In this document: in pieces, positions 1 to 8,576 of the stretch
How positions within the stretch are numbered: position 1 is the stretch's first letter
Layout: every line of letters begins with the position of its first letter
UHGV virus genome: UHGV-1373278
Origin: a virus
Length of the DNA stretch: 8,576 nucleotides
Reading direction: 5' to 3' (one strand)
Program-made: the position numbers and the translations under genes
Notes under the pieces: model-generated
Told to the model about the DNA's origin: nothing
What the model saw: only the letters and a program-made list of their open reading frames with translations
The model's database searches: none

Positions 1-65
1 CAGTGGATTACGGTCTGTGACCAATGACGGCACCGGTAACGCCAGTTCCCGCCATCCTTACCATT

Positions 66-98
66 GGTGCGCATAATGTACGACTCGTTATGTTGAAA
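66..98 (+). other. dif-like XerC/XerD recombination site (putative prophage attachment junction)
   Basis: GGTGCGCATAA (66-76) is identical to the E. coli dif XerC arm as I recall it. It is followed by an 11-nt central region TGTACGACTCG (77-87), versus 6 nt in chromosomal dif, then TTATGTTGAAA (88-98), which matches the dif XerD arm TTATGTTAAAT at 9 of 11 positions. Confidence 0.5.
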
Positions 99-136
99 AG
101 GCCGCTGCGAAAATCGAATCCCGCAGCGGCCTCTTT
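96..136. terminator. Stem-loop, probable bidirectional rho-independent terminator
   Basis: Perfect 10-bp inverted repeat GGCCGCTGCG (100-109) / CGCAGCGGCC (122-131) with a 12-nt loop. Flanked by AAAA (96-99), which is a U-run on the - strand, and TCTTT (132-136). Lies just downstream of the - strand CDS ending at 163. Confidence 0.5.
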
Positions 137-162
137 AGCATAACGTCATTATGCGAACCATA

Positions 163-1105: not shown

Positions 1106-1528
1106 TTACCAGTAATATGACTTTCTTCTGTGCCACCAATAAAGTAGGCCGTATCCGACGATAAGAATCCCGAAGAACATCAGCGACATTCCCCAGCCAG
1201 TTCCGTACCACGAAACCATATCATCGAAAACTAACCCGCCCATTTCACGAACTCCGGCTGCTTCCTTAAGAATTGGTTTGAATACCGGAATCAGAAGGGC
1301 GATCGCAAGTGGAGCACACCAGCGAACAAGACCAGTTTCCATTTTGATCCCGAAAAAGATCCCCGCACCGACAACAAGCAACCAGACTATCAGGCCAGGC
1401 GCAGTTTCCAGTGCTGTTTGCCATTCAACATCGAAAGTTTTCATTAGCCAGGCAACAACTGCCAGACAGAAAGCAAATACGCCCACGACAACCAGTTCAA
1501 CGCCGCTTGTTTCGTTATTTCTACTCAT
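1106..1528 (-). CDS. Small integral membrane protein (about 140 aa, about 4 predicted TM helices)
   Basis: Start preferred at the ATG at 1528-1526 (MSRNNETSG...), preceded by an AGGA about 8 nt upstream. The ORF-track start at 1675 would overlap the upstream gene and its terminator hairpins. Protein has several long hydrophobic stretches (LVVVGVFAFCLAVVAWL, GLIVWLLVVGAGIFFGI, WCAPLAIALLIPVF, MSLMFFGILIVGYGLLYWW) and a basic C-terminus. Confidence 0.55.
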   Translation of the reverse strand: MSRNNETSGVELVVVGVFAFCLAVVAWLMKTFDVEWQTALETAPGLIVWLLVVGAGIFFGIKMETGLVRWCAPLAIALLIPVFKPILKEAAGVREMGGLVFDDMVSWYGTGWGMSLMFFGILIVGYGLLYWWHRRKSYYW

Positions 1529-1968: not shown

Positions 1969-3021
1969 GTGATCGATTGGCTTACCGGGATTTTCCCTTG
2001 CACACACAAACCGCTTCCGGCGGGGAGTGTTGTCAGCGTTGATGCTGACGGTGCAATTGAGTGGGAAACCGTTAAGCGACTGACTGTTCGCGGTTCGCAT
2101 GAAGCAACGATGAAAGTACGATCGATAGGATCTAATGGCGAAGGTAAAGCGACACATTTGTACATTGATGGTAATCCTTCCAAGTTTCTGCAGGGGCATT
2201 CTGTTGTTGGGTCGGATGATATACAAGGGCTCATGTTGACGGTCTATGCCAGGATTTTATCCTTATTGAATATTCCTCATGATTTAGCGTCTTATAAAGC
2301 CGTTATGGCAGGTCAGTATAAAATTTCACGTGTTGACATTAATTACATGTATTCATTATCTACGCTGGAAAATGTCAGATCATGGCTTTATGCCGCCGAA
2401 TTTAAAGCTAAAACACGCCATGGTCGCGCATGTGGGAAAGGCGGTACAGTTTATTTAGGTAAAAACTCCCGTCGATGGAGTCTGAAATTTTATTCAAAAT
2501 ATGATGAACACGTTTCTGGTAAAAAAGGGCACCAGATAGCCGAAGAGTTTGTACGAGCCGGGTTACTGGACTGGACGAAAGATAAATTACGTATTGAATT
2601 AACATTAAGAACAACTGAGCTTATTGATTTAAATTTAACGCTTGGCGCTAACTGGAATATGAAAACACCACGTCAATTATTCTCTGAATATGTAGGGAGA
2701 ATAGAAATGAATCAGAATGCTATTTTAAGTGATGAAAAAATAACGAAACTGCCAAGAAAAATACAGTCAACTTATTTACTTTGGAAACAAGGGGCTAACA
2801 TGAAAGAAATGTTACCTCATAACACTTTTTATCGCCATAGAAGAGAATTGCTTTCGTTCGGTATCGATATTAATTTCTATTGTGATTCACCAGACTCTAA
2901 TAACGTTGTTCCGCTAATAAGAACGCTGGAAGCCAAGCCAGCGGAAATCCCCTTATGGATTTATGAGAAAGGTTTTATTTTCGATTACAACCGTATTTCG
3001 CACGCCAGTAGCTGGCATTAA
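1969..3021 (+). CDS. II: Replication initiation protein pII (rolling-circle nickase), Ff gene II homolog
   Basis: No in-frame ATG near the 5' end, so a GTG start is inferred. GTG at 1969 has a GAGG RBS 8 nt upstream and gives MIDWLTG..., like Ff pII MIDMLVL... The alternative GTG at 1927 lacks an RBS. C-terminal region contains NVVPLIR, as in Ff pII (NVVPLVR). First gene in the Ff order. Confidence 0.8.
   Translation: MIDWLTGIFPCTHKPLPAGSVVSVDADGAIEWETVKRLTVRGSHEATMKVRSIGSNGEGKATHLYIDGNPSKFLQGHSVVGSDDIQGLMLTVYARILSLLNIPHDLASYKAVMAGQYKISRVDINYMYSLSTLENVRSWLYAAEFKAKTRHGRACGKGGTVYLGKNSRRWSLKFYSKYDEHVSGKKGHQIAEEFVRAGLLDWTKDKLRIELTLRTTELIDLNLTLGANWNMKTPRQLFSEYVGRIEMNQNAILSDEKITKLPRKIQSTYLLWKQGANMKEMLPHNTFYRHRRELLSFGIDINFYCDSPDSNNVVPLIRTLEAKPAEIPLWIYEKGFIFDYNRISHASSWH
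2707..3021 (+). CDS. X: pX, in-frame internal translation product of gene II (104 aa)
   Basis: In-frame ATG at 2707 preceded by AGGGAGA (2694-2700) with a 6-nt spacer. Product starts MNQNAILSDE, like Ff pX MNIYDDSAVL. An alternative in-frame ATG at about 2660 (MKTPRQ...) is possible. Confidence 0.55.
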   Translation: MNQNAILSDEKITKLPRKIQSTYLLWKQGANMKEMLPHNTFYRHRRELLSFGIDINFYCDSPDSNNVVPLIRTLEAKPAEIPLWIYEKGFIFDYNRISHASSWH

Positions 3022-3032
3022 AGGAAAGTAAT

Positions 3033-3350
3033 ATGTCTAATTATGGTCTTTTCGTTAAGGGTAAAATGTTGGGAGCCCGCCAACGTAATAAAGTTAATGG
3101 TCAGGGCTATTATAATGAAATTGGTATTGGCCTTGAAATACCTGATGGTTTTGGTGGTACAAAGCAGGATCAAATTATTATTCGAGTTTCTCAGGCTCTC
3201 GTTAACGCAGGTCTAATGAACCAGGCGAATGCTTTCATTGGGAAATTAGTTCAAATTCCTGTCTATGTCCGTGCGTGGTCAATGGAGGGTAGGGAAGGTG
3301 TAACTTATAATGTTTCTTCCGATGGTGGCATCGCAGAGATCAAAGGTTAA
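3033..3350 (+). CDS. V: Putative ssDNA-binding protein at the gene V position (105 aa; not recognisably Ff pV-like)
   Basis: ATG at 3033 with AGGA RBS (3022-3025) immediately after the gII stop. Size and position match gene V, but the sequence is Gly-rich and basic and does not match Ff/IKe pV from memory. Confidence 0.6.
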   Translation: MSNYGLFVKGKMLGARQRNKVNGQGYYNEIGIGLEIPDGFGGTKQDQIIIRVSQALVNAGLMNQANAFIGKLVQIPVYVRAWSMEGREGVTYNVSSDGGIAEIKG

Positions 3351-3352
3351 AT

Positions 3353-3439
3353 ATGGACGATGTTATTCAAATTTTGATAGCGTCTGGCATCGTTATTTCT
3401 TTTGGCCTCGGCGCGATTACTGCGGGGGTCTTTCGTTAA
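3353..3439 (+). CDS. VII: Minor coat protein pVII (28 aa)
   Basis: ATG at 3353. Small hydrophobic protein MDDVIQILIASGIVISFGLGAITAGVFR resembles Ff pVII (...ALGIIAGGQR). Stop TAA at 3437-3439 overlaps the next start (TAATG). Confidence 0.6.
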   Translation: MDDVIQILIASGIVISFGLGAITAGVFR

Positions 3440-3534
3440 TGTATATCGTTTATTTCTTCGGGGCTTATACCTTTGGTTTTGCCCTTTTCTATGCGGTCGG
3501 TTCATTTAAATCATTTTCTGACCGATTAATGTAA
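3439..3534 (+). CDS. IX: Minor coat protein pIX (31 aa)
   Basis: ATG at 3439 overlapping the pVII stop. MYIVYFFGAYTFGFALFYAVGSFKSFSDRLM resembles Ff pIX (MSVLVYSFASFVLGWCLRSGITYFTRLMETSS). Confidence 0.6.
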   Translation: MYIVYFFGAYTFGFALFYAVGSFKSFSDRLM

Positions 3535-3553
3535 CCTTAATGGAGTTATTCCT

Positions 3554-3796
3554 ATGAAAATTCTGTCTACTGTTAAATATAAAATTGCTCTGGCTTCAAC
3601 TGCGCTTTTTATTTCTGCAAGTTCTTTTGCGGCTGAAGGCGCTACAGGTGGTACTGATTATGCAGGTCAGGCAATGGATGCTTTGTTGACTCAGGCAAAT
3701 GATCTCATTGGTAAAGTATGGCCTGTTGTTGTTGCTGTGGTTGGCGCTGGGCTTGCCATTCGTATTTTCAAAAAATTCTCTTCAAAAGCGGTTTGA
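3554..3796 (+). CDS. VIII: Major coat protein pVIII precursor (80 aa; mature about 54 aa)
   Basis: GGAG RBS 8 nt upstream. Signal peptide [26 protein letters not shown], then mature AEGATGG... with a hydrophobic core and basic C-terminus [11 protein letters not shown], close to Ff/IKe pVIII (...KLFKKFTSKAS). Confidence 0.9.
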
Positions 3797-3805
3797 ATTT
3801 CACTC

Positions 3806-3830
3806 AGGGGCACTCGTTGCCCCTTTATTA
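3806..3830 (+). terminator. Rho-independent terminator after gene VIII
   Basis: Perfect 7-bp stem AGGGGCA (3806-3812) / TGCCCCT (3818-3824) with loop CTCGT, followed by TTTATT. Same position as the strong terminator after gene VIII in Ff phages. Confidence 0.7.
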
Positions 3831-3842
3831 AAGCGGGTTACT

Positions 3843-5165
3843 ATGAGAAGGAAAATATTAATTCTTTCCGCTGTCCTCATTTCTCCTTTTTCACATGCTG
3901 AGTCATGGGAAAGCATTACTAAATCCACTTATCAAAGTTCTGCCTACGCTGAAAGTAAGCAAATAACCAATCAGGATGGCTCTAAGATAACGGTTTACTA
4001 TATTGATGCTGCTATGCAGGCCTCCGCTTGTCAGGGTGCTAAATCCAGTGCTCAGAGTGTATTTACTCGGATTAAACCAACTTATGAGGGTATCTGGCCT
4101 GATTCTGAATTCCGTCTTGTTTTTACTGGCGATTGTACTTACAGCGATTCACCAGGGCAGAAGGATAAATATTGGTCTTTAACGGCTTATATTGTTGGTA
4201 ATATTCAGCGTTCTGTTCCTGATGAAAAACCTACTGACCCGACACCAGAAGAAATTTGTGAAGCGAAGCCGCCAGAAGAAGGTGTATTTAATAATGTTGA
4301 TTCATATGATGGTGGTCGCTATATCTACTATAACGGCTGTGAATATGAGGCTACTGGTGTCATTGTTTGTCAGGGTGATGGTACTGTTTGCGCTGCAACA
4401 TGGAAGCCTACAGGTGCTGTAGCTGACCCCTCTGATAAACCCTCAACCCCCCAAAATGGTGGTGGTGAGTCTGGCGGTGGTGAGTCCAGCGGTGGTGAGT
4501 CCAGCGGTGGTGAGTCTGGCGGTGGTGAGTCCGGCGGTGGTGAGTCCGGTGGTGGTGAGTCCGGCGGTGGTGAGTCTGGCGGTGGTGAGTCCGGTGGCGG
4601 TAGTTCTGGCGGTAGTTCTGGCGGTGGCTCTAGTGGTTCCAGTCTTTCTAAAGGTGATATTCAGTCTGCGATCGAAGGTGCTTCACCCAAAATAGCCAGC
4701 GATATTCATGATAAATTAACGGAGAAAGACACTTCATCAGATGATAAAAAAAATGCCGATGAACAAACCAGGAATAATATAAATCGTCTTGACGATTCCA
4801 TTAACAATCTTACGCGGGGGGCTGGCCGTTTTGCTGACCCTTCAGGTGGTGATTCTCGTTATGGAAAGGGCGACTCTGAATTAGATGGCGCTTCTACTTT
4901 GGCTGATTCTGAATTGGGAATTGAAAAGGATTCTCACGGTGCTTTATGGGAAGCGTTTTTAAATAAAGGTGCTATGCTGCCTAATTTACCCAATGGTAAC
5001 GGCTGCTCTGATTTTATTATTTTTCCCGGAGAGGTTTATCAGATTGATATTGGTTGCGATAAATTACTGACTATTAAAGATGTTCTTTCATGGGTTTTTT
5101 ATTGCCTTACGTTCTGGTATGTCTTTACTTCTTTAACTTCATTGCTTCGCAAAGGGGGTGAGTGA
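3843..5165 (+). CDS. III: Minor coat / adsorption protein pIII (440 aa)
   Basis: ATG at 3843 with signal peptide [19 protein letters not shown]. Cys motif [25 protein letters not shown] resembles the Ff N1 TolA-binding motif (CLWNATGVVVCTGDETQCYGTWVP). GGGES-repeat linker follows. C-terminal ...[40 protein letters not shown] resembles the Ff pIII C-terminus. The 3699 ORF-track start is an out-of-context upstream extension overlapping gVIII. Confidence 0.9.
4458..4640 (+). repeat. Tandem 15-bp in-frame repeat array encoding the (G-G-E-S-G/S) linker of pIII
   Basis: Nine near-identical 15-bp units GGTGGTGAGTC(T/C)(G/A)GC(G/T) from about 4461 to 4595, then degenerate Gly/Ser codons to about 4640. 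Confidence 0.85.
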
Positions 5166-5506
5166 TGCCTTTATTATTAGGTATTCCTGCATTGTTGCGT
5201 TTTCTTATTGGTCTTGTTCCTTTGTTTATTGGCTATGTGGCGAGTTTTTTAGCTCGACTTGCTACCAGAACAGGATTAATCGCCTTTGCATTGGTCGCAT
5301 TAATTACAACAACTGTTACGCTTTTAATGCAGTACCTTGCTGAGGTCATGTATAACGGTTTACCTGCTGATTTCTCCCATTTAATGGCGTCTGTATTGCC
5401 TGACCATTTTCAGGCGTGTGTTAACGTTATTATGGTTACTCGTATCAGTGTTTTTGTTTTCGATTTAAAACAAAAGTTTCTTGATTATGCAAACAGGGTG
5501 ATTTAA
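5165..5506 (+). CDS. VI: Minor coat protein pVI (113 aa)
   Basis: ATG at 5165 overlapping the gIII stop TGA (ATGA). [24 protein letters not shown]... resembles Ff pVI (MPVLLGIPLLLRFLGFLLVTLFGY...). C-terminal FVFDLKQKF matches Ff FIFDVKQKI. Confidence 0.9.
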   Translation: MPLLLGIPALLRFLIGLVPLFIGYVASFLARLATRTGLIAFALVALITTTVTLLMQYLAEVMYNGLPADFSHLMASVLPDHFQACVNVIMVTRISVFVFDLKQKFLDYANRVI

Positions 5507-6601
5507 ATGGCGGTTTATGTAGTAACAGGCAAATTAGGCTCAGGCAAGACACTTGTTAGTGTTTCCAGAATACAGGAAAGACTTGCTAAGGGTTGTCCTG
5601 TTGCCACTAATCTTGATCTTAAATTGCATAATATGCCTATGGTTGGGCGTTATGCGAAAAAAACGCGCGTTATTCGCATTCCTGACAAGCCTTCATTAAA
5701 TGATTTACTTGCTATTGGTATTGGGAATACATCTTACGATGAATCCCGTAATGGCCTCCTTGTACTTGATGAATGTGGTACTTGGTTTAATTCCCGCTCA
5801 TGGGGTGATAAAGACAGACAACCTGTTATTGACTGGTTTTTACATGCCAGAAAATTAGGCTGGGATATTATATTTTTGATTCAGGATATTTCGATAATGG
5901 ATAAGCAAGCTCGTCTGGCGCTTGCTGAGCATGTTGTTTATTGTCGCCGTTCAGATAAATTAAACATTCCTTTTGTTGGCTCCATTATGAATTTGGTTTC
6001 AGGGGCGAGATTTTCTTTACCAAAGGTACACTTTGGCATTGTCAAATATGGTGATAATGTTAATTCAATCACTGTTGATAAATGGATATATACAGGAAAA
6101 TCTCTTTATTCTGCTTACAATACCAAACAAGCGTTCACAGATAATTATCCTCATGGCGCATTTTCGCTTTTGCCACCATTTATCACGCACGGTCAATTTT
6201 CTGTTCACAGAGGATTTAATTATTATATGCGCCTCACTAAAATTTATTTTCGCAAATCGAACCGTCTTATATTAATGCTTTCTTTTTTGGCGCTGGGGCT
6301 TGCGTTTGGTTTCTGGCTCCAGTCTGGAAAGAATGTTGATGAAATCTCAGCTATTAAATCTGCTTATGCTGAACAGGCGAGGGCGGTAACGCCTGATTCG
6401 TCCAGTAACTTACCCCGACTTTCTATTAATTCTTTTTCACAACTTGGCTTTGACGTTTCCGTTACGTTTGTTGATGCTAAAGGTATGAAATATCAGTATT
6501 TTGATTTGATTAAAGATGGTTATTCCGTTGATATTAAAGATGCCTGTCGTGTTGTTATTAGAAAAGGCCGTTATTTACAGACTGTTACCTGTCAGGAGTA
6601 A
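5507..6601 (+). CDS. I: Assembly ATPase pI (Zot-like, 364 aa)
   Basis: ATG at 5507 immediately after the gVI stop. N-terminus MAVYVVTGKLGSGKTLVSV (Walker A) is nearly identical to Ff pI MAVYFVTGKLGSGKTLVSV. Extensive similarity continues (LLVLDECGTWFN, IIDWFLHARKLGWDIIFL). Confidence 0.9.
   Translation: MAVYVVTGKLGSGKTLVSVSRIQERLAKGCPVATNLDLKLHNMPMVGRYAKKTRVIRIPDKPSLNDLLAIGIGNTSYDESRNGLLVLDECGTWFNSRSWGDKDRQPVIDWFLHARKLGWDIIFLIQDISIMDKQARLALAEHVVYCRRSDKLNIPFVGSIMNLVSGARFSLPKVHFGIVKYGDNVNSITVDKWIYTGKSLYSAYNTKQAFTDNYPHGAFSLLPPFITHGQFSVHRGFNYYMRLTKIYFRKSNRLILMLSFLALGLAFGFWLQSGKNVDEISAIKSAYAEQARAVTPDSSSNLPRLSINSFSQLGFDVSVTFVDAKGMKYQYFDLIKDGYSVDIKDACRVVIRKGRYLQTVTCQE
6227..6601 (+). CDS. XI: pXI, in-frame internal translation product of gene I (124 aa)
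   Basis: In-frame ATG at residue 241 of pI (MRLTKIYFRKSN...), the same position and context as Ff pXI (Met241, MKLTKIYLKKF...), followed by a TM segment. Purine-rich AGAGGA lies about 12 nt upstream. Confidence 0.5.
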   Translation: MRLTKIYFRKSNRLILMLSFLALGLAFGFWLQSGKNVDEISAIKSAYAEQARAVTPDSSSNLPRLSINSFSQLGFDVSVTFVDAKGMKYQYFDLIKDGYSVDIKDACRVVIRKGRYLQTVTCQE

Positions 6602-6608
6602 TATTATT

Positions 6609-7874
6609 ATGCGCTCTGTTATTGTTGCTTTTTTATTTGCCTGTTCATTCTGCGTTTCTGCTGAAACTGTTAATTTAAATAATTCATCTGTTCGCTCATT
6701 TGTTCAGTGGTATTCTTCAAAAACTGGCAAGCCTGTTATTGTTAATCCTGATATTAAAGGAAACGTAACCGTATTTAATGCTGATGTTAATCCAGCAAAT
6801 ATTGATGATTTCTTTAAGTCTGTTCTGAATGCTAACGGTTTTGTCATGCTTTCTGGCAATCCTGCGGTAGTCTCTTTGCCGTCTAAATTACCTTCACAGA
6901 TGGTTTCGGATTCCGATGATTCTGATAACCAGTCTTATGATACTTTTCCTTCTGAGCCATCTTACCAGCCAGTACCTGTGGCGCTTACGGTCAGAAATTT
7001 TAAGCTGACAAAAGTTAGATCGTCCGATGTTCAGCAACTGATTAAAATTTATCTTGATTCTAATGGTGGTGGTAATGTCGTGGATTATCCAGGCAATAAC
7101 TCGCTGATTGTTTCTGCGCCTGACGAGCTGCTGCCGGTTCTGTCCGATTTTATCAATTCTGTGGATGTTGCCCGCGATCAGGTTCTCATTCAGTCGCTGA
7201 TGTTTGAAACCAGCTTGTCTGATGGCGTTGATTTATCGTTTGCGGCAGGTTCTGCATCCGGTCATAAGGTTGCGGGGGGCTTTAATACTTCTGCACTGGG
7301 TAGCGCTCTTTCTACGGCGGGCGGTTCTTTTGGTATTTTTGATGGTAACGTGTTGGCGCTGTCTCTGCGTGCTGTCCAGAGTAATTCACGCTCTAAGGTG
7401 ATTTCAACGCCGCGTATTCTTACTCAGTCTGGTCAGACTGGTTACATTTCCGTAGGTAAGAATGTGCCGTTTATCACCGGAAAGGTAACGGGCGAATCTG
7501 CCGGGGTAAATAATCCGTTTCAGACTATCGAGCGTCATGATGTTGGCGTTTCTCTCAAGGTAACGCCTGTTGTCATGGGTAACGGGCAACTAGTTCTGAC
7601 TATCGACACTCGCGCTGATTCAATCAGCAATGATGATCAGGCATCCGATATTATTACTAATCAGCGCCAGATTCAGACGACAGTCCAGATTAAGGATGGT
7701 CAGACGTTGTTATTGGGGGGGCTTATCGATTCATCGTTCAGCAATGCCGAGCGTTCAGTTCCAGTTATAAGTAAAATTCCTCTTATAGGCTGGATTTTCA
7801 GTAGCAAGGCAGACAGCAATGAACAGCGTATTATGTATATTTTGCTTACAGCACATATCATTCGTCCACTTTGA
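6609..7874 (+). CDS. IV: Outer-membrane secretin pIV (421 aa)
   Basis: ATG at 6609 with AGGAG (6594-6598) about 10 nt upstream. Signal peptide MRSVIVAFLFACSFCVSA. Strong similarity to Ff pIV throughout (VRSFVQWYSS..., NVPFITGKVTGESAGVNNPFQTIERHDVG..., DGQTLLLGGL..., SKIPLIGW-FSS). The 6516 ORF-track start is an upstream extension inside gI. Confidence 0.9.
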   Translation: MRSVIVAFLFACSFCVSAETVNLNNSSVRSFVQWYSSKTGKPVIVNPDIKGNVTVFNADVNPANIDDFFKSVLNANGFVMLSGNPAVVSLPSKLPSQMVSDSDDSDNQSYDTFPSEPSYQPVPVALTVRNFKLTKVRSSDVQQLIKIYLDSNGGGNVVDYPGNNSLIVSAPDELLPVLSDFINSVDVARDQVLIQSLMFETSLSDGVDLSFAAGSASGHKVAGGFNTSALGSALSTAGGSFGIFDGNVLALSLRAVQSNSRSKVISTPRILTQSGQTGYISVGKNVPFITGKVTGESAGVNNPFQTIERHDVGVSLKVTPVVMGNGQLVLTIDTRADSISNDDQASDIITNQRQIQTTVQIKDGQTLLLGGLIDSSFSNAERSVPVISKIPLIGWIFSSKADSNEQRIMYILLTAHIIRPL

Positions 7875-7918
7875 TGGATAGCGGGTAGGTGCGTGAGCCC
7901 TGCTCGCTATCCATCAAA
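7870..7918 (+). other. Large imperfect hairpin overlapping the gIV stop codon (candidate gIV terminator and/or packaging-signal-like hairpin)
   Basis: 14-bp perfect inverted repeat TTTGATGGATAGCG (7870-7883) / CGCTATCCATCAAA (7905-7918) around a 21-nt GC-rich loop that can extend the stem with G-U pairs. No U-run follows. In Ff the post-gIV intergenic region carries a terminator and the packaging hairpin. Confidence 0.4.
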
Positions 7919-7943
7919 TGGACATTATTGATTGGGGTAACTA

Positions 7944-8252
7944 ATGGATTCTTATGGGATTTTATCTGCTCTGGCAGAACGAACGATTACAGCGGAAGAA
8001 GCAAAAACAATGACACTTGCAGCCAGAAGTTCTTCGGCTCAGGTAAATGAAGCATCACTTGCTCTGTTACTGATTGATAATACTCTGGATGCGATCAAAG
8101 CAGCTGCCAGTGAAGGGAAAGGATACACTTTACTTCCTTCTTATGAGATTTCTGTAAAAGCCATTGATTTAGCAGAAGAATTTTTAAGGAAACAATGCGG
8201 CTATGTTATTGATAACCAGAATGGCGTAAGGACGGTCTATTGGTTTATATGA
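7944..8252 (+). CDS. Hypothetical protein (102 aa), accessory ORF downstream of gIV
   Basis: ATG at 7944 with a weak GGGG(T) SD-like element. Ala/Leu-rich, predicted largely helical, no signal peptide. No recognisable homology from memory. Followed by a structured region and a T7 run (8319-8325). Confidence 0.45.
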   Translation: MDSYGILSALAERTITAEEAKTMTLAARSSSAQVNEASLALLLIDNTLDAIKAAASEGKGYTLLPSYEISVKAIDLAEEFLRKQCGYVIDNQNGVRTVYWFI

Positions 8253-8369: not shown

Positions 8370-8576
8370 ATGCAATTTTTCACATCCAGCGATACTGTAA
8401 TGTTATGTGCGAAGACCTGCGATCGCTGTGGTCGCCATGCGAAGACGGTGGTAGATGACATTGAGTTCAATGAGTTTCTGTCTGTTAATCACTTAGCTGG
8501 ATACGGTTCAATTTTTGGTGACAGTAATCGCTTAAAACTGGATTTATGCCAACATTGCCTGAAAGACGTCCTGGGC
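8370..8576 (+). CDS. Cys-rich (putative zinc-ribbon) hypothetical protein, 5' partial; continues beyond the window
   Basis: ATG at 8370 with strong GAGGAG RBS (8359-8364). Frame open for 69 codons to the window end. Contains C-x3-C-x2-C (CAKTCDRCG) and C-x2-C (CQHC) motifs. Missing from the ORF track because no stop falls in the window. Confidence 0.5.
   Translation, partial: MQFFTSSDTVMLCAKTCDRCGRHAKTVVDDIEFNEFLSVNHLAGYGSIFGDSNRLKLDLCQHCLKDVLG

Follow-up and report, generated by a model that had tools for sequence, protein, structure and literature searches.

A closed UPΦ-type prophage unit that appears to combine a YpfΦ-like replication cassette with an IKe/I2-2-like morphogenesis block

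The 8,576-nucleotide (nt) stretch of viral DNA analysed here (UHGV virus genome UHGV-1373278; hereafter the window) poses the question of how filamentous phage genes with conflicting affinities came to lie in one genome. The original prediction, made from the letters of the window, had described the genes at 1969-7874 as a mosaic of conserved, Ff-like morphogenesis genes and a divergent replication module. We are highly confident that the window represents, as a single unit, the complete genome of a UPΦ virus, a member of the group formed by UPΦ901 and its 229 relatives, the "UPΦ viruses" (Shapiro & Putonti, 2020, Virus Evol 6:veaa030; PMC7307601), and that two inovirus lineages recombined to give this genome. 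Direct support comes from gene content, protein identities and breakpoints, from cis elements that are conserved, and from the fold predicted for the gene V protein (pV), and no check made here contradicted the architecture.

The range 1969-7874 runs exactly from the start of gII to the stop of gIV, and the inovirus gene set predicted there is present. The core genes II, X (a candidate), V, VII, IX, VIII, III, VI, I and IV follow the order of Ff on the plus strand, and the listing of open reading frames (ORFs) shows all eleven expected genes intact with plausible starts. Every protein of the window was compared with those of the reference phages M13, IKe, I2-2 and If1. The morphogenesis block as a whole (3353-7874), recognised by Pfam matches and by identity to IKe/I2-2, comprises gVII (3353-3439), gIX (3439-3534), gVIII (3554-3796), gIII (3843-5165), gVI (5162-5506), gI (5507-6601; Pfam Zot, 6e-41) and gIV (6609-7874; Pfam secretin, 5.7e-43), all on the plus strand. 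Its products share 52-74% amino acid identity with IKe/I2-2 and 29-56% with M13. For IKe, I2-2 and M13 in turn, the values are 66, 65 and 56% for pI, 72, 74 and 51% for pIV, 54, 54 and 29% for pIII, and 62, 55 and 44% for pVIII; pVI is 53% identical to that of IKe and 35% to that of M13. Every morphogenesis gene is nearer to IKe/I2-2 than to Ff. The kinship with Ff that the original prediction had read from these genes is real: from the N-terminus, pI and its M13 counterpart agree in 18 of 20 and in 117 of 150 residues, the C-terminus of pIII aligns visibly with that of M13, and pVIII, pVI and pIV resemble their Ff counterparts, with higher identities to IKe. The label "Ff-like" fits only loosely, and Lineavirus-like (IKe/I2-2) describes the phage better.

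Two further features of the block point the same way. In pIII, the G3P_pilus-bind domain comes first (residues 23-126) and Phage_Coat_A lies at 136-177 (Pfam). Downstream, a packaging (morphogenetic) signal hairpin at 7864-7923 on the plus strand overlaps the end of gIV; as DNA it folds at -24.5 kcal/mol (z = -8.0), and over the apical 21-22 nt it agrees with the morphogenetic signals annotated in I2-2 (95%) and IKe (91%), so that the packaging signal belongs with the morphogenesis block. Morphogenesis genes, order of the pIII domains and packaging signal are thus all of Lineavirus type, and on sequence similarity we assign gVII-gIX-gVIII-gIII-gVI-gI-gIV and the packaging hairpin to the IKe/I2-2 (Lineavirus) lineage. 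Neither the Ff-type gII and gV of the Ff group (genus Inovirus) nor genome-wide high identity to that group was found.

The replication genes have other relatives. The 350-residue product of gII (1969-3021, plus strand), which begins at a GTG with the ribosome-binding site GAGGA upstream, matches Pfam Phage_CRI (4.7e-71), Pfam G2P_X_C (2.3e-29) and TIGR01629 (1.1e-76 over residues 2-338), and is by these matches the predicted rolling-circle replication initiator. An in-frame ATG at 2707 (plus strand), preceded by GGGAGAA, would start a candidate gX of 104 residues at gII codon 247, the same codon number as in I2-2 gene X. Identity of pII is 95% to Brenneria, 87% to YpfΦ, 57% to I2-2 (full length, E 5e-136), 27% to M13 and 25% to IKe. 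The original prediction had held that pII resembles Ff mainly in its C-terminal region and N-terminus; the protein is in fact a full-length member of the II/X family, but the low resemblance stands, at only 27% identity. In a scan of one genome per species, pII identities of 86-95% were found in Yersinia pestis, Klebsiella spallanzanii, Brenneria alni and Phytobacter, and the Y. pestis locus is YpfΦ, present as tandem units of 8,742 nt.

The next gene, gV (3033-3350, plus strand), encodes 105 residues of which 17 (16%) are glycine. That this glycine-rich protein in the gene V position is unlike Ff pV was correctly foreseen: BLAST gave no match to gene V of M13, IKe or If1, forced alignment yielded 15% identity to IKe and 11% to M13, and the protein falls into Pfam PF17426 ('Putative_G5P', 3.2e-51), which is separate from the Ff gene V family. 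Its identity is 94% to YpfΦ and 39-40% to I2-2 (E 5e-26), and spans 87-95% across the YpfΦ, Brenneria, K. spallanzanii and Phytobacter prophages. A sequence search of the PDB with pV returned nothing at E ≤ 10. Modelling predicts a single-stranded DNA (ssDNA)-binding OB fold with SSB/PriB as the most similar structures, and pV plausibly does the work of Ff pV, from which it would either differ in ancestry or have diverged very deeply.

Comparison of gII/gV with gI/gIV, the check that had been proposed for discordance, was run through identity matrices and gave a clear result. For pII and pV, YpfΦ is nearest (87%, 94%), followed by I2-2 (57%, 39%), and IKe and M13 show 11-27% identity to the window. 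For pI, pIV and pIII, IKe/I2-2 are nearest (54-74%), M13/If1 come next (26-58%) and YpfΦ lies far out, with 23% for pI, 24% for pIV and 20-24% for pI, pIII and pIV together in forced global alignments. The only morphogenesis similarity detectable in the YpfΦ, Brenneria, K. spallanzanii and Phytobacter prophages was a partial secretin match at 27-28%. At the nucleotide level, blastn aligned YpfΦ and the K. spallanzanii prophage with the window only at 1970-3357 (80%) and in short attachment-site (att) and origin patches. In 50-nt windows, identity to YpfΦ is about 40% outside 1969-3350 and 70-94% inside, so the breakpoints against both prophages coincide with the start of gII and the stop of gV. 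The discordance and these breakpoints together bear out the modular exchange of the replication and ssDNA-binding cassette that the original prediction had proposed. In B. alni the shared segment extends leftwards through the regulator gene upstream of gII, with regulator and gII at 88-96% nt identity, and drops to 64-88% in gV. The gV of the window is nearer to YpfΦ and K. spallanzanii (94-95% amino acid identity) and its gII nearer to Brenneria (95%), which indicates partly separate histories of the two genes, and hence mosaicism inside the cassette.

Could the split have arisen without any exchange, gII and gV simply being the fastest-evolving genes of a vertically diverging Ff/IKe-like phage? 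Replication proteins often evolve fast, and pII is still a full-length II/X member. However, such a phage would hardly carry a pII and a pV with 87 and 94% identity to those of YpfΦ, whose other proteins are only about 20-24% identical, nor would sharp breakpoints be expected; pV also belongs to another Pfam family, with a predicted fold most like SSB/PriB. The reference phages speak against it as well. IKe and M13 share 60% identity in pII, in line with their other genes, and 45% in pV; IKe and I2-2 are close relatives with 85% in pI and 93% in pIII, yet their pII proteins are only 22% identical. Stassen et al. (1992) present I2-2 in their title as a case of "module evolution", and this pII difference between IKe and I2-2 is reportedly the module swap so named. 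We regard vertical divergence as extremely improbable.

Equally slight is the chance that the window is the CUS-1/YpfΦ prophage itself, the dif-integrated prophage of E. coli O18:K1:H7 and Yersinia pestis. The dif-type junction and close copies beside hipA at dif in the extraintestinal pathogenic E. coli-type strains UM146 and F11 would suit it, as would an att region 95-97% identical to that of YpfΦ and the pII and pV identities of 87-94%. This had been our initial guess, from the dif context and the UM146 and F11 matches, and was dropped when YpfΦ aligned over gII-gV only. CUS-1 is reported as 99% identical to YpfΦ over 7.1 kb, and about 7 kb of regulation, replication and assembly genes are given as the shared region (review PMC4266046). 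No identity of about 99% over about 7 kb was found between the window and YpfΦ; beyond 1970-3357 and the short att and origin patches there is no nt similarity to the 8.74-kb YpfΦ unit, pI, pIII and pIV reach only 20-24%, and the regulator is a different protein. Moreover, matches to the YpfΦ unit at 99.6% exist separately, in 85 complete E. coli genomes as against 47 with the window type.

The cassette seems to include its own cis site. Upstream of gII, the plus strand at 1572-1616 carries a conserved hairpin, ACGTGCAGT-GTAGGTAAT-ACTGCACGT at 1572-1598 (fold z = -3.4), and just after it a second inverted repeat, GTACCA-TTCG-TGGTAC, at 1601-1616. The hairpin is kept in YpfΦ, K. spallanzanii, Brenneria, Phytobacter, an Aerococcus-labelled metagenome-assembled genome (MAG) and the intergenic region of I2-2 (2666-2691), where it has one loop mismatch. 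It was conserved in every fetched locus in which the region could be examined, save those of Rheinheimera (pII 44%), IKe, M13 and If1, which gave no match; it thus co-occurs with window-type pII, I2-2 included. The M13 origin core, which we take to be GAGTCCAC-GTTCTTTAATA-GTGGACTC followed by TTGTTCCAAACTGGAACAA, has a layout like that of the window, and this sequence was located in M13. An Ff-type origin was considered and rejected: the Ff nick-site core CTTTAATAGT occurs in the window only inside gIII on the minus strand, so no Ff-type origin is present. From its conservation, we infer that 1572-1616 is the plus-strand origin, that it would travel with gII and that the nick site probably lies here. 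The second inverted repeat differs, with one version in the window, Brenneria and Phytobacter and another in YpfΦ, which would fit a role in pII specificity. Judged by these relatives, the replication cassette (candidate origin, gII/gX and gV) is of the YpfΦ/CUS-1-like dif-prophage type and more distantly of the I2-2 type.

Which virus carries this combination follows from comparison with the UPΦ group. UPΦ viruses are temperate filamentous phages reported from E. coli, Salmonella, Klebsiella, Citrobacter koseri and Y. enterocolitica, typically as tandem integrations at dif in which the junctions between repeats hold a partial dif, with IKe and I2-2 as closest relatives and extra ORFs around the core; their core genes have at least 98% amino acid identity to UPΦ901, and placement in Lineavirus is only proposed by the authors (PMC7307601). 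Between UPΦ901 and YpfΦ, every gene is below 20% identity except II and V, which exceed 85%, and the II/V module of UPΦ901 has less than 15% similarity in IKe and M13 (PMC7307601). As this definition requires, only pII (87%) and pV (94%) of the window are highly similar to YpfΦ and the rest is closest to IKe/I2-2. Two UPΦ901 primers match the window exactly, UPphi_shortFW at 4423-4442 and IntCheck_RV at 7971-7990, whereas UPphi_shortRV has two mismatches. The stretch from gIV to attP contains two extra ORFs, one at 7944-8252 (orf102, plus strand, accessory, containing the IntCheck_RV site) and one at 8370-8576 continuing at 1-27 (plus strand); from their position and this primer site we take them to be the equivalents of UPΦ h1 and h2. 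For orf102, PADLOC, NCBIfam and further family searches gave no significant match.

The window is 99.0% identical to the dif prophage of UM146 over 7,471 nt, and prophages of its type (at least 80% of the window; about 99% over 7.5 kb) occur in 47 complete E. coli genomes, a number that makes an architecture produced by misassembly unlikely. The original prediction had opposed a mosaic to a single known phage with uniformly high identity throughout; here about 99% identity to known E. coli prophages, those of the UPΦ group, holds only trivially, and the genome is a mosaic nonetheless. The relatives in UM146 and F11 lie beside hipA at dif, and the UM146 prophage has an intact dif at its right end. 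In the pIII linker (4456-4700), a glycine-rich GGGES/GGSS repeat array varies in length among copies (pIII of 430-445 residues in relatives), and this accounts for most of the indels between the window and UM146 and WL297; a variable GGGES-type repeat in gIII has been reported for UPΦ too (PMC7307601). Contig JARKOR010000214.1, from a MAG labelled Candidatus Nanosynbacter, shares 98% identity with the window across 7.5 kb, and JAUMZL010000036.1, from the MAG labelled Aerococcus, also bears this enterobacterial inovirus cassette; binning contamination is the most likely source of both labels.

The ends of the window show that the unit is complete. Joined, 8370-8576 and 1-27 form an intact ORF of 77 residues with CxxC...CxxC motifs and a TGA stop at 25-27, annotated as a 234-nt coding sequence in UM146 and WL297. 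In UM146, position 8576 of the window aligns to 12329 and position 1 to 12330, with 1-80 matching 12330-12409 at 100%. The spanning ORF and this contiguous alignment establish that 8576 joins 1 and that the unit is circularly closed. The window is a permuted circular genome or a single repeat of a tandem array, and tandem arrays of the same type of element are present in strain WL297 and record CP057371. The array in the latter record (CP057371.1 2346-19142) lies beside hipA and is heterotypic: a UPΦ copy with the SduA cargo gene adjoins a UPΦ copy with UM146-type cargo, the latter consisting of 91- and 159-residue ORFs.

The dif-like junction to which the original prediction had appealed is real, but it lies at 66-98, outside 1969-7874. 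It forms part of an attP-type region (65-160, plus strand) in which an imperfect dif-like site and an inverted dif-like site are separated by a G+C-rich hairpin. The first site reads GGTGCGCATAA-TGTACGACTCG-TTATGTTGAAA and has an 11-nt central region as against 6 in dif; the second, in inverted orientation, lies at 133-159. No full canonical E. coli dif with up to three mismatches was found in the window. As ssDNA, 65-160 forms a forked hairpin that pairs the two dif-like sites (-31.4 kcal/mol, z = -8.3; 0 of 200 shuffles as good). The attP of CTXΦ has the same folded arrangement of paired sites. By analogy with CTXΦ, integration would proceed via the folded attP hairpin and host XerCD. Such an arrangement has been proposed for YpfΦ (review PMC4266046), and UPΦ901 integrates in tandem at dif, its lysogens shedding DNase-protected phage DNA (PMC7307601).

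A mechanism can be proposed for why the junctions lie where they do. Here, pII would nick the origin hairpin and drive rolling-circle synthesis, and the OB-fold pV would coat the single strands. The IKe-type assembly machinery would recognise the packaging hairpin only, and would swap pV for pVIII during pI/pIV export. Origin, pII, pX and pV would then form one interacting set, and the packaging signal, pVII, pIX and pI another. Each set could be exchanged as a unit, which would explain breakpoints at the start of gII and the stop of gV.

Several points limit this account of the window. The origin hairpin lies between two minus-strand genes, with a T-rich run after it on the minus strand, and could therefore be a terminator between them, besides or instead of an origin; that I2-2 keeps the loop almost unchanged speaks against a role that is structural only. 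The link to UPΦ, in turn, rests on primer matches, the published description and the 99% identity to E. coli dif prophages. A further point concerns the direction of transfer. Between the window and I2-2, pII (57%) and pV (39%) show identities not far from those of the remaining genes (52-74%), so part of the history of the cassette could be vertical in an ancestor of I2-2 and UPΦ, with YpfΦ-type phages as recipients.

In its full form, this reversal of polarity would make the I2-2/UPΦ cassette vertical, YpfΦ-like phages having taken gII and gV from a UPΦ-like donor and IKe having swapped in an Ff-type cassette. The collinearity of I2-2 with the window, from origin hairpin through a frameshifted regulator to gII, gV, the morphogenesis genes and the packaging signal, would be expected if this were so. 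However, saliva inoviruses and Dulem viruses also have pV proteins of the PF17426 type, with 30-36% identity, and it is their Zot proteins that come nearest to YpfΦ Zot in the database (40-46%); in one virus of this saliva/Dulem type pV adjoins a gene annotated as a replication initiation factor. The distribution of pV and the Zot kinship suggest, from thin sampling, that the YpfΦ-like clade is the original home of PF17426 pV, with I2-2 and UPΦ as recipients. IKe, moreover, resembles M13 in pII and pV to the same degree as in its other genes, a pattern consistent with vertical inheritance in IKe. We consider the reversed direction unlikely.

The last such point is functional: the authors did not succeed in starting new UPΦ901 infections, and some UPΦ copies have premature stops in genes I-IV (PMC7307601), as would be expected if the window were a decaying, non-functional prophage remnant. 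Here, however, the genes and cis elements are intact and the unit is closed, and DNase-protected phage DNA is shed by UPΦ901 lysogens (PMC7307601). A remnant is, in our view, improbable, and we retain the reading of the window as a complete UPΦ unit of recombinant origin.

Between attP and gII lies the accessory slot and regulator region. The minus-strand gene at 163-963 encodes a protein of 266 residues that matches Pfam SduA_C (2.4e-25) and PADLOC PDLC00378 (5e-111 over residues 2-265) and bears a PD...EIEK motif. As a single protein with a DUF4263/SduA_C PD-(D/E)xK domain it is assigned to the Shedu-type (SduA) nucleases, with a putative anti-phage role as accessory cargo. The SduA cargo had no match in 5,426 complete E. 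coli genomes, and UM146 and WL297 hold other genes in the dif-proximal slot. The exact protein is indexed in 271 blocks of a wider collection, and its occurrences inside UPΦ-type prophages span several chromosomal contexts. It is accompanied in the window by orf140 (1106-1528, minus strand), a further accessory gene, without a Pfam, PADLOC or NCBIfam match, whose product has relatives in prophages of K. spallanzanii (YpfΦ-type, 96% amino acid identity) and Phytobacter (86%). In GCA_005919045.1 (7337-10801), SduA and orf140 together sit in a YpfΦ/CUS-1-type prophage with a helix-turn-helix (HTH) regulator, a 570-residue pIII and a 341-residue Zot, so this accessory module is common to two lineages with unrelated morphogenesis genes. 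The UPΦ paper makes no mention of defence genes or nucleases (PMC7307601), and a literature search combining Shedu and inovirus turned up only Xylella genomics papers.

Next to the candidate origin, 1617-1799 on the minus strand encodes a 60-residue putative regulator, labelled ribbon-helix-helix-like from a reading of its sequence. It had no family match in Pfam, PADLOC or NCBIfam, and NCBIfam likewise had no model for pV, orf140, orf102 or SduA. The regulator is 98% identical in Brenneria and 97% in Phytobacter; YpfΦ-type prophages have an HTH protein in its place. If1 carries at 5119-5322 (minus strand), in its 'intergenic region', an unannotated intact ORF of 67 residues that is 58% identical to the regulator, and the 'intergenic region' of I2-2 holds a copy at 2720-2918 (minus strand) that appears frameshifted. 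These homologues fit temperate ancestry, or else a sequencing error in the old I2-2 record.

A non-coding, unstranded 50-nt element at 1047-1096 has a counterpart of 98% identity at 5052-5101 in the major intergenic region of If1; proteins of the window and If1 are at most 58% identical. The element was found in only 31 E. coli records, with few plasmid matches, and its fold is no better than that of shuffles (z = -0.9). Roles as a minus-strand origin or priming signal were considered, and no evidence was found for either. Scanned against Rfam (E ≤ 1), the whole window yielded nothing beyond a small RNA match of chance level at 98-149. In the If1 region 5388-7086, 'ORF348' is an IS605 OrfB/TnpB (Pfam 4.7e-33, plus a Cas12f1-like TNB domain), the unannotated 147-residue minus-strand ORF beside it is an IS200-type Y1 transposase (1.2e-27), and 'ORF320' is a diverged pII (G2P_X_C, 4.9e-25); annotations in the old If1 record (eryA, R-pyocin) are misleading.

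The mosaic reading is thus correct but already known, the UPΦ group and its gII/gV split having been published in 2020 (PMC7307601), and the cassette, being of the I2-2/YpfΦ type, is not novel. That filamentous phages exchange modules has been documented since I2-2 (1992), and current understanding is unchanged. What is added is that the boundaries are pinned, that each module appears to bear its own cis site, that pV is predicted to have an SSB/PriB-like OB fold, that the 8,576-nt unit is closed, and that a Shedu gene occupies the slot next to dif and is common to two otherwise unrelated prophage lineages. This sharing may interest students of defence-gene movement. It is possible, if somewhat doubtful, that cassette and origin are a self-contained replicon that has entered an IKe-type backbone at least twice (I2-2 and UPΦ) at the same junctions, that the second repeat co-varies with pII, and that the dif-proximal slot may traffic a working Shedu gene between the UPΦ and CUS-1/YpfΦ lineages. 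If such traffic occurs, filamentous dif prophages would be vehicles of anti-phage immunity in Enterobacterales. On this reading, what is left in I2-2 of the regulator (frameshifted) and of the origin hairpin would testify directly to temperate ancestors of classical non-integrating phages.

Set against known systems, the window is nearest to UPΦ901, with which it shares gene order, dif-associated tandem prophages in Enterobacterales, IKe and I2-2 as closest relatives and a YpfΦ match confined to II and V; it differs in length, an 8,576-nt unit as against a 7,560-bp query, and in the Shedu SduA in its slot. Of the cultured phages in a collection of 50,697 records, only I2-2 (Lineavirus) has the pII type of the window (57%), and I2-2 is also the best pV match among these records (40%). 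It shares with the window the origin hairpin, the packaging signal and the whole morphogenesis block (52-74%), but lacks a dif-like site and the accessory ORFs, has a regulator copy that appears frameshifted, and has a pII and pV much more distant from those of the window than are those of YpfΦ. IKe (Lineavirus), which is described as non-integrating (PMC7307601), has morphogenesis proteins 53-72% identical to those of the window, the same pIII domain order and a similar packaging hairpin loop; its gII and gV, however, are of the Ff type.

YpfΦ/CUS-1, the subject of Derbise et al. (2007) and Gonzalez et al. (2002), resembles the window in its tandem arrangement at dif with an imperfect dif at copy junctions, in gII and gV (80% nt identity), in the shared origin patch, and in a variable accessory slot in the same place that can hold the same SduA and orf140. 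It differs in morphogenesis genes that are unrelated or barely related (20-24%), in a 570-residue pIII and in an HTH-type regulator. The Ff phages (M13/fd/f1) have the same gene order and an origin with the same layout of hairpin and inverted repeat, and the M13 record has no att site or accessory genes annotated. They are set apart from the window by a pII of 27% identity, a pV without detectable sequence kinship and another organisation of the N-terminal domains of pIII.

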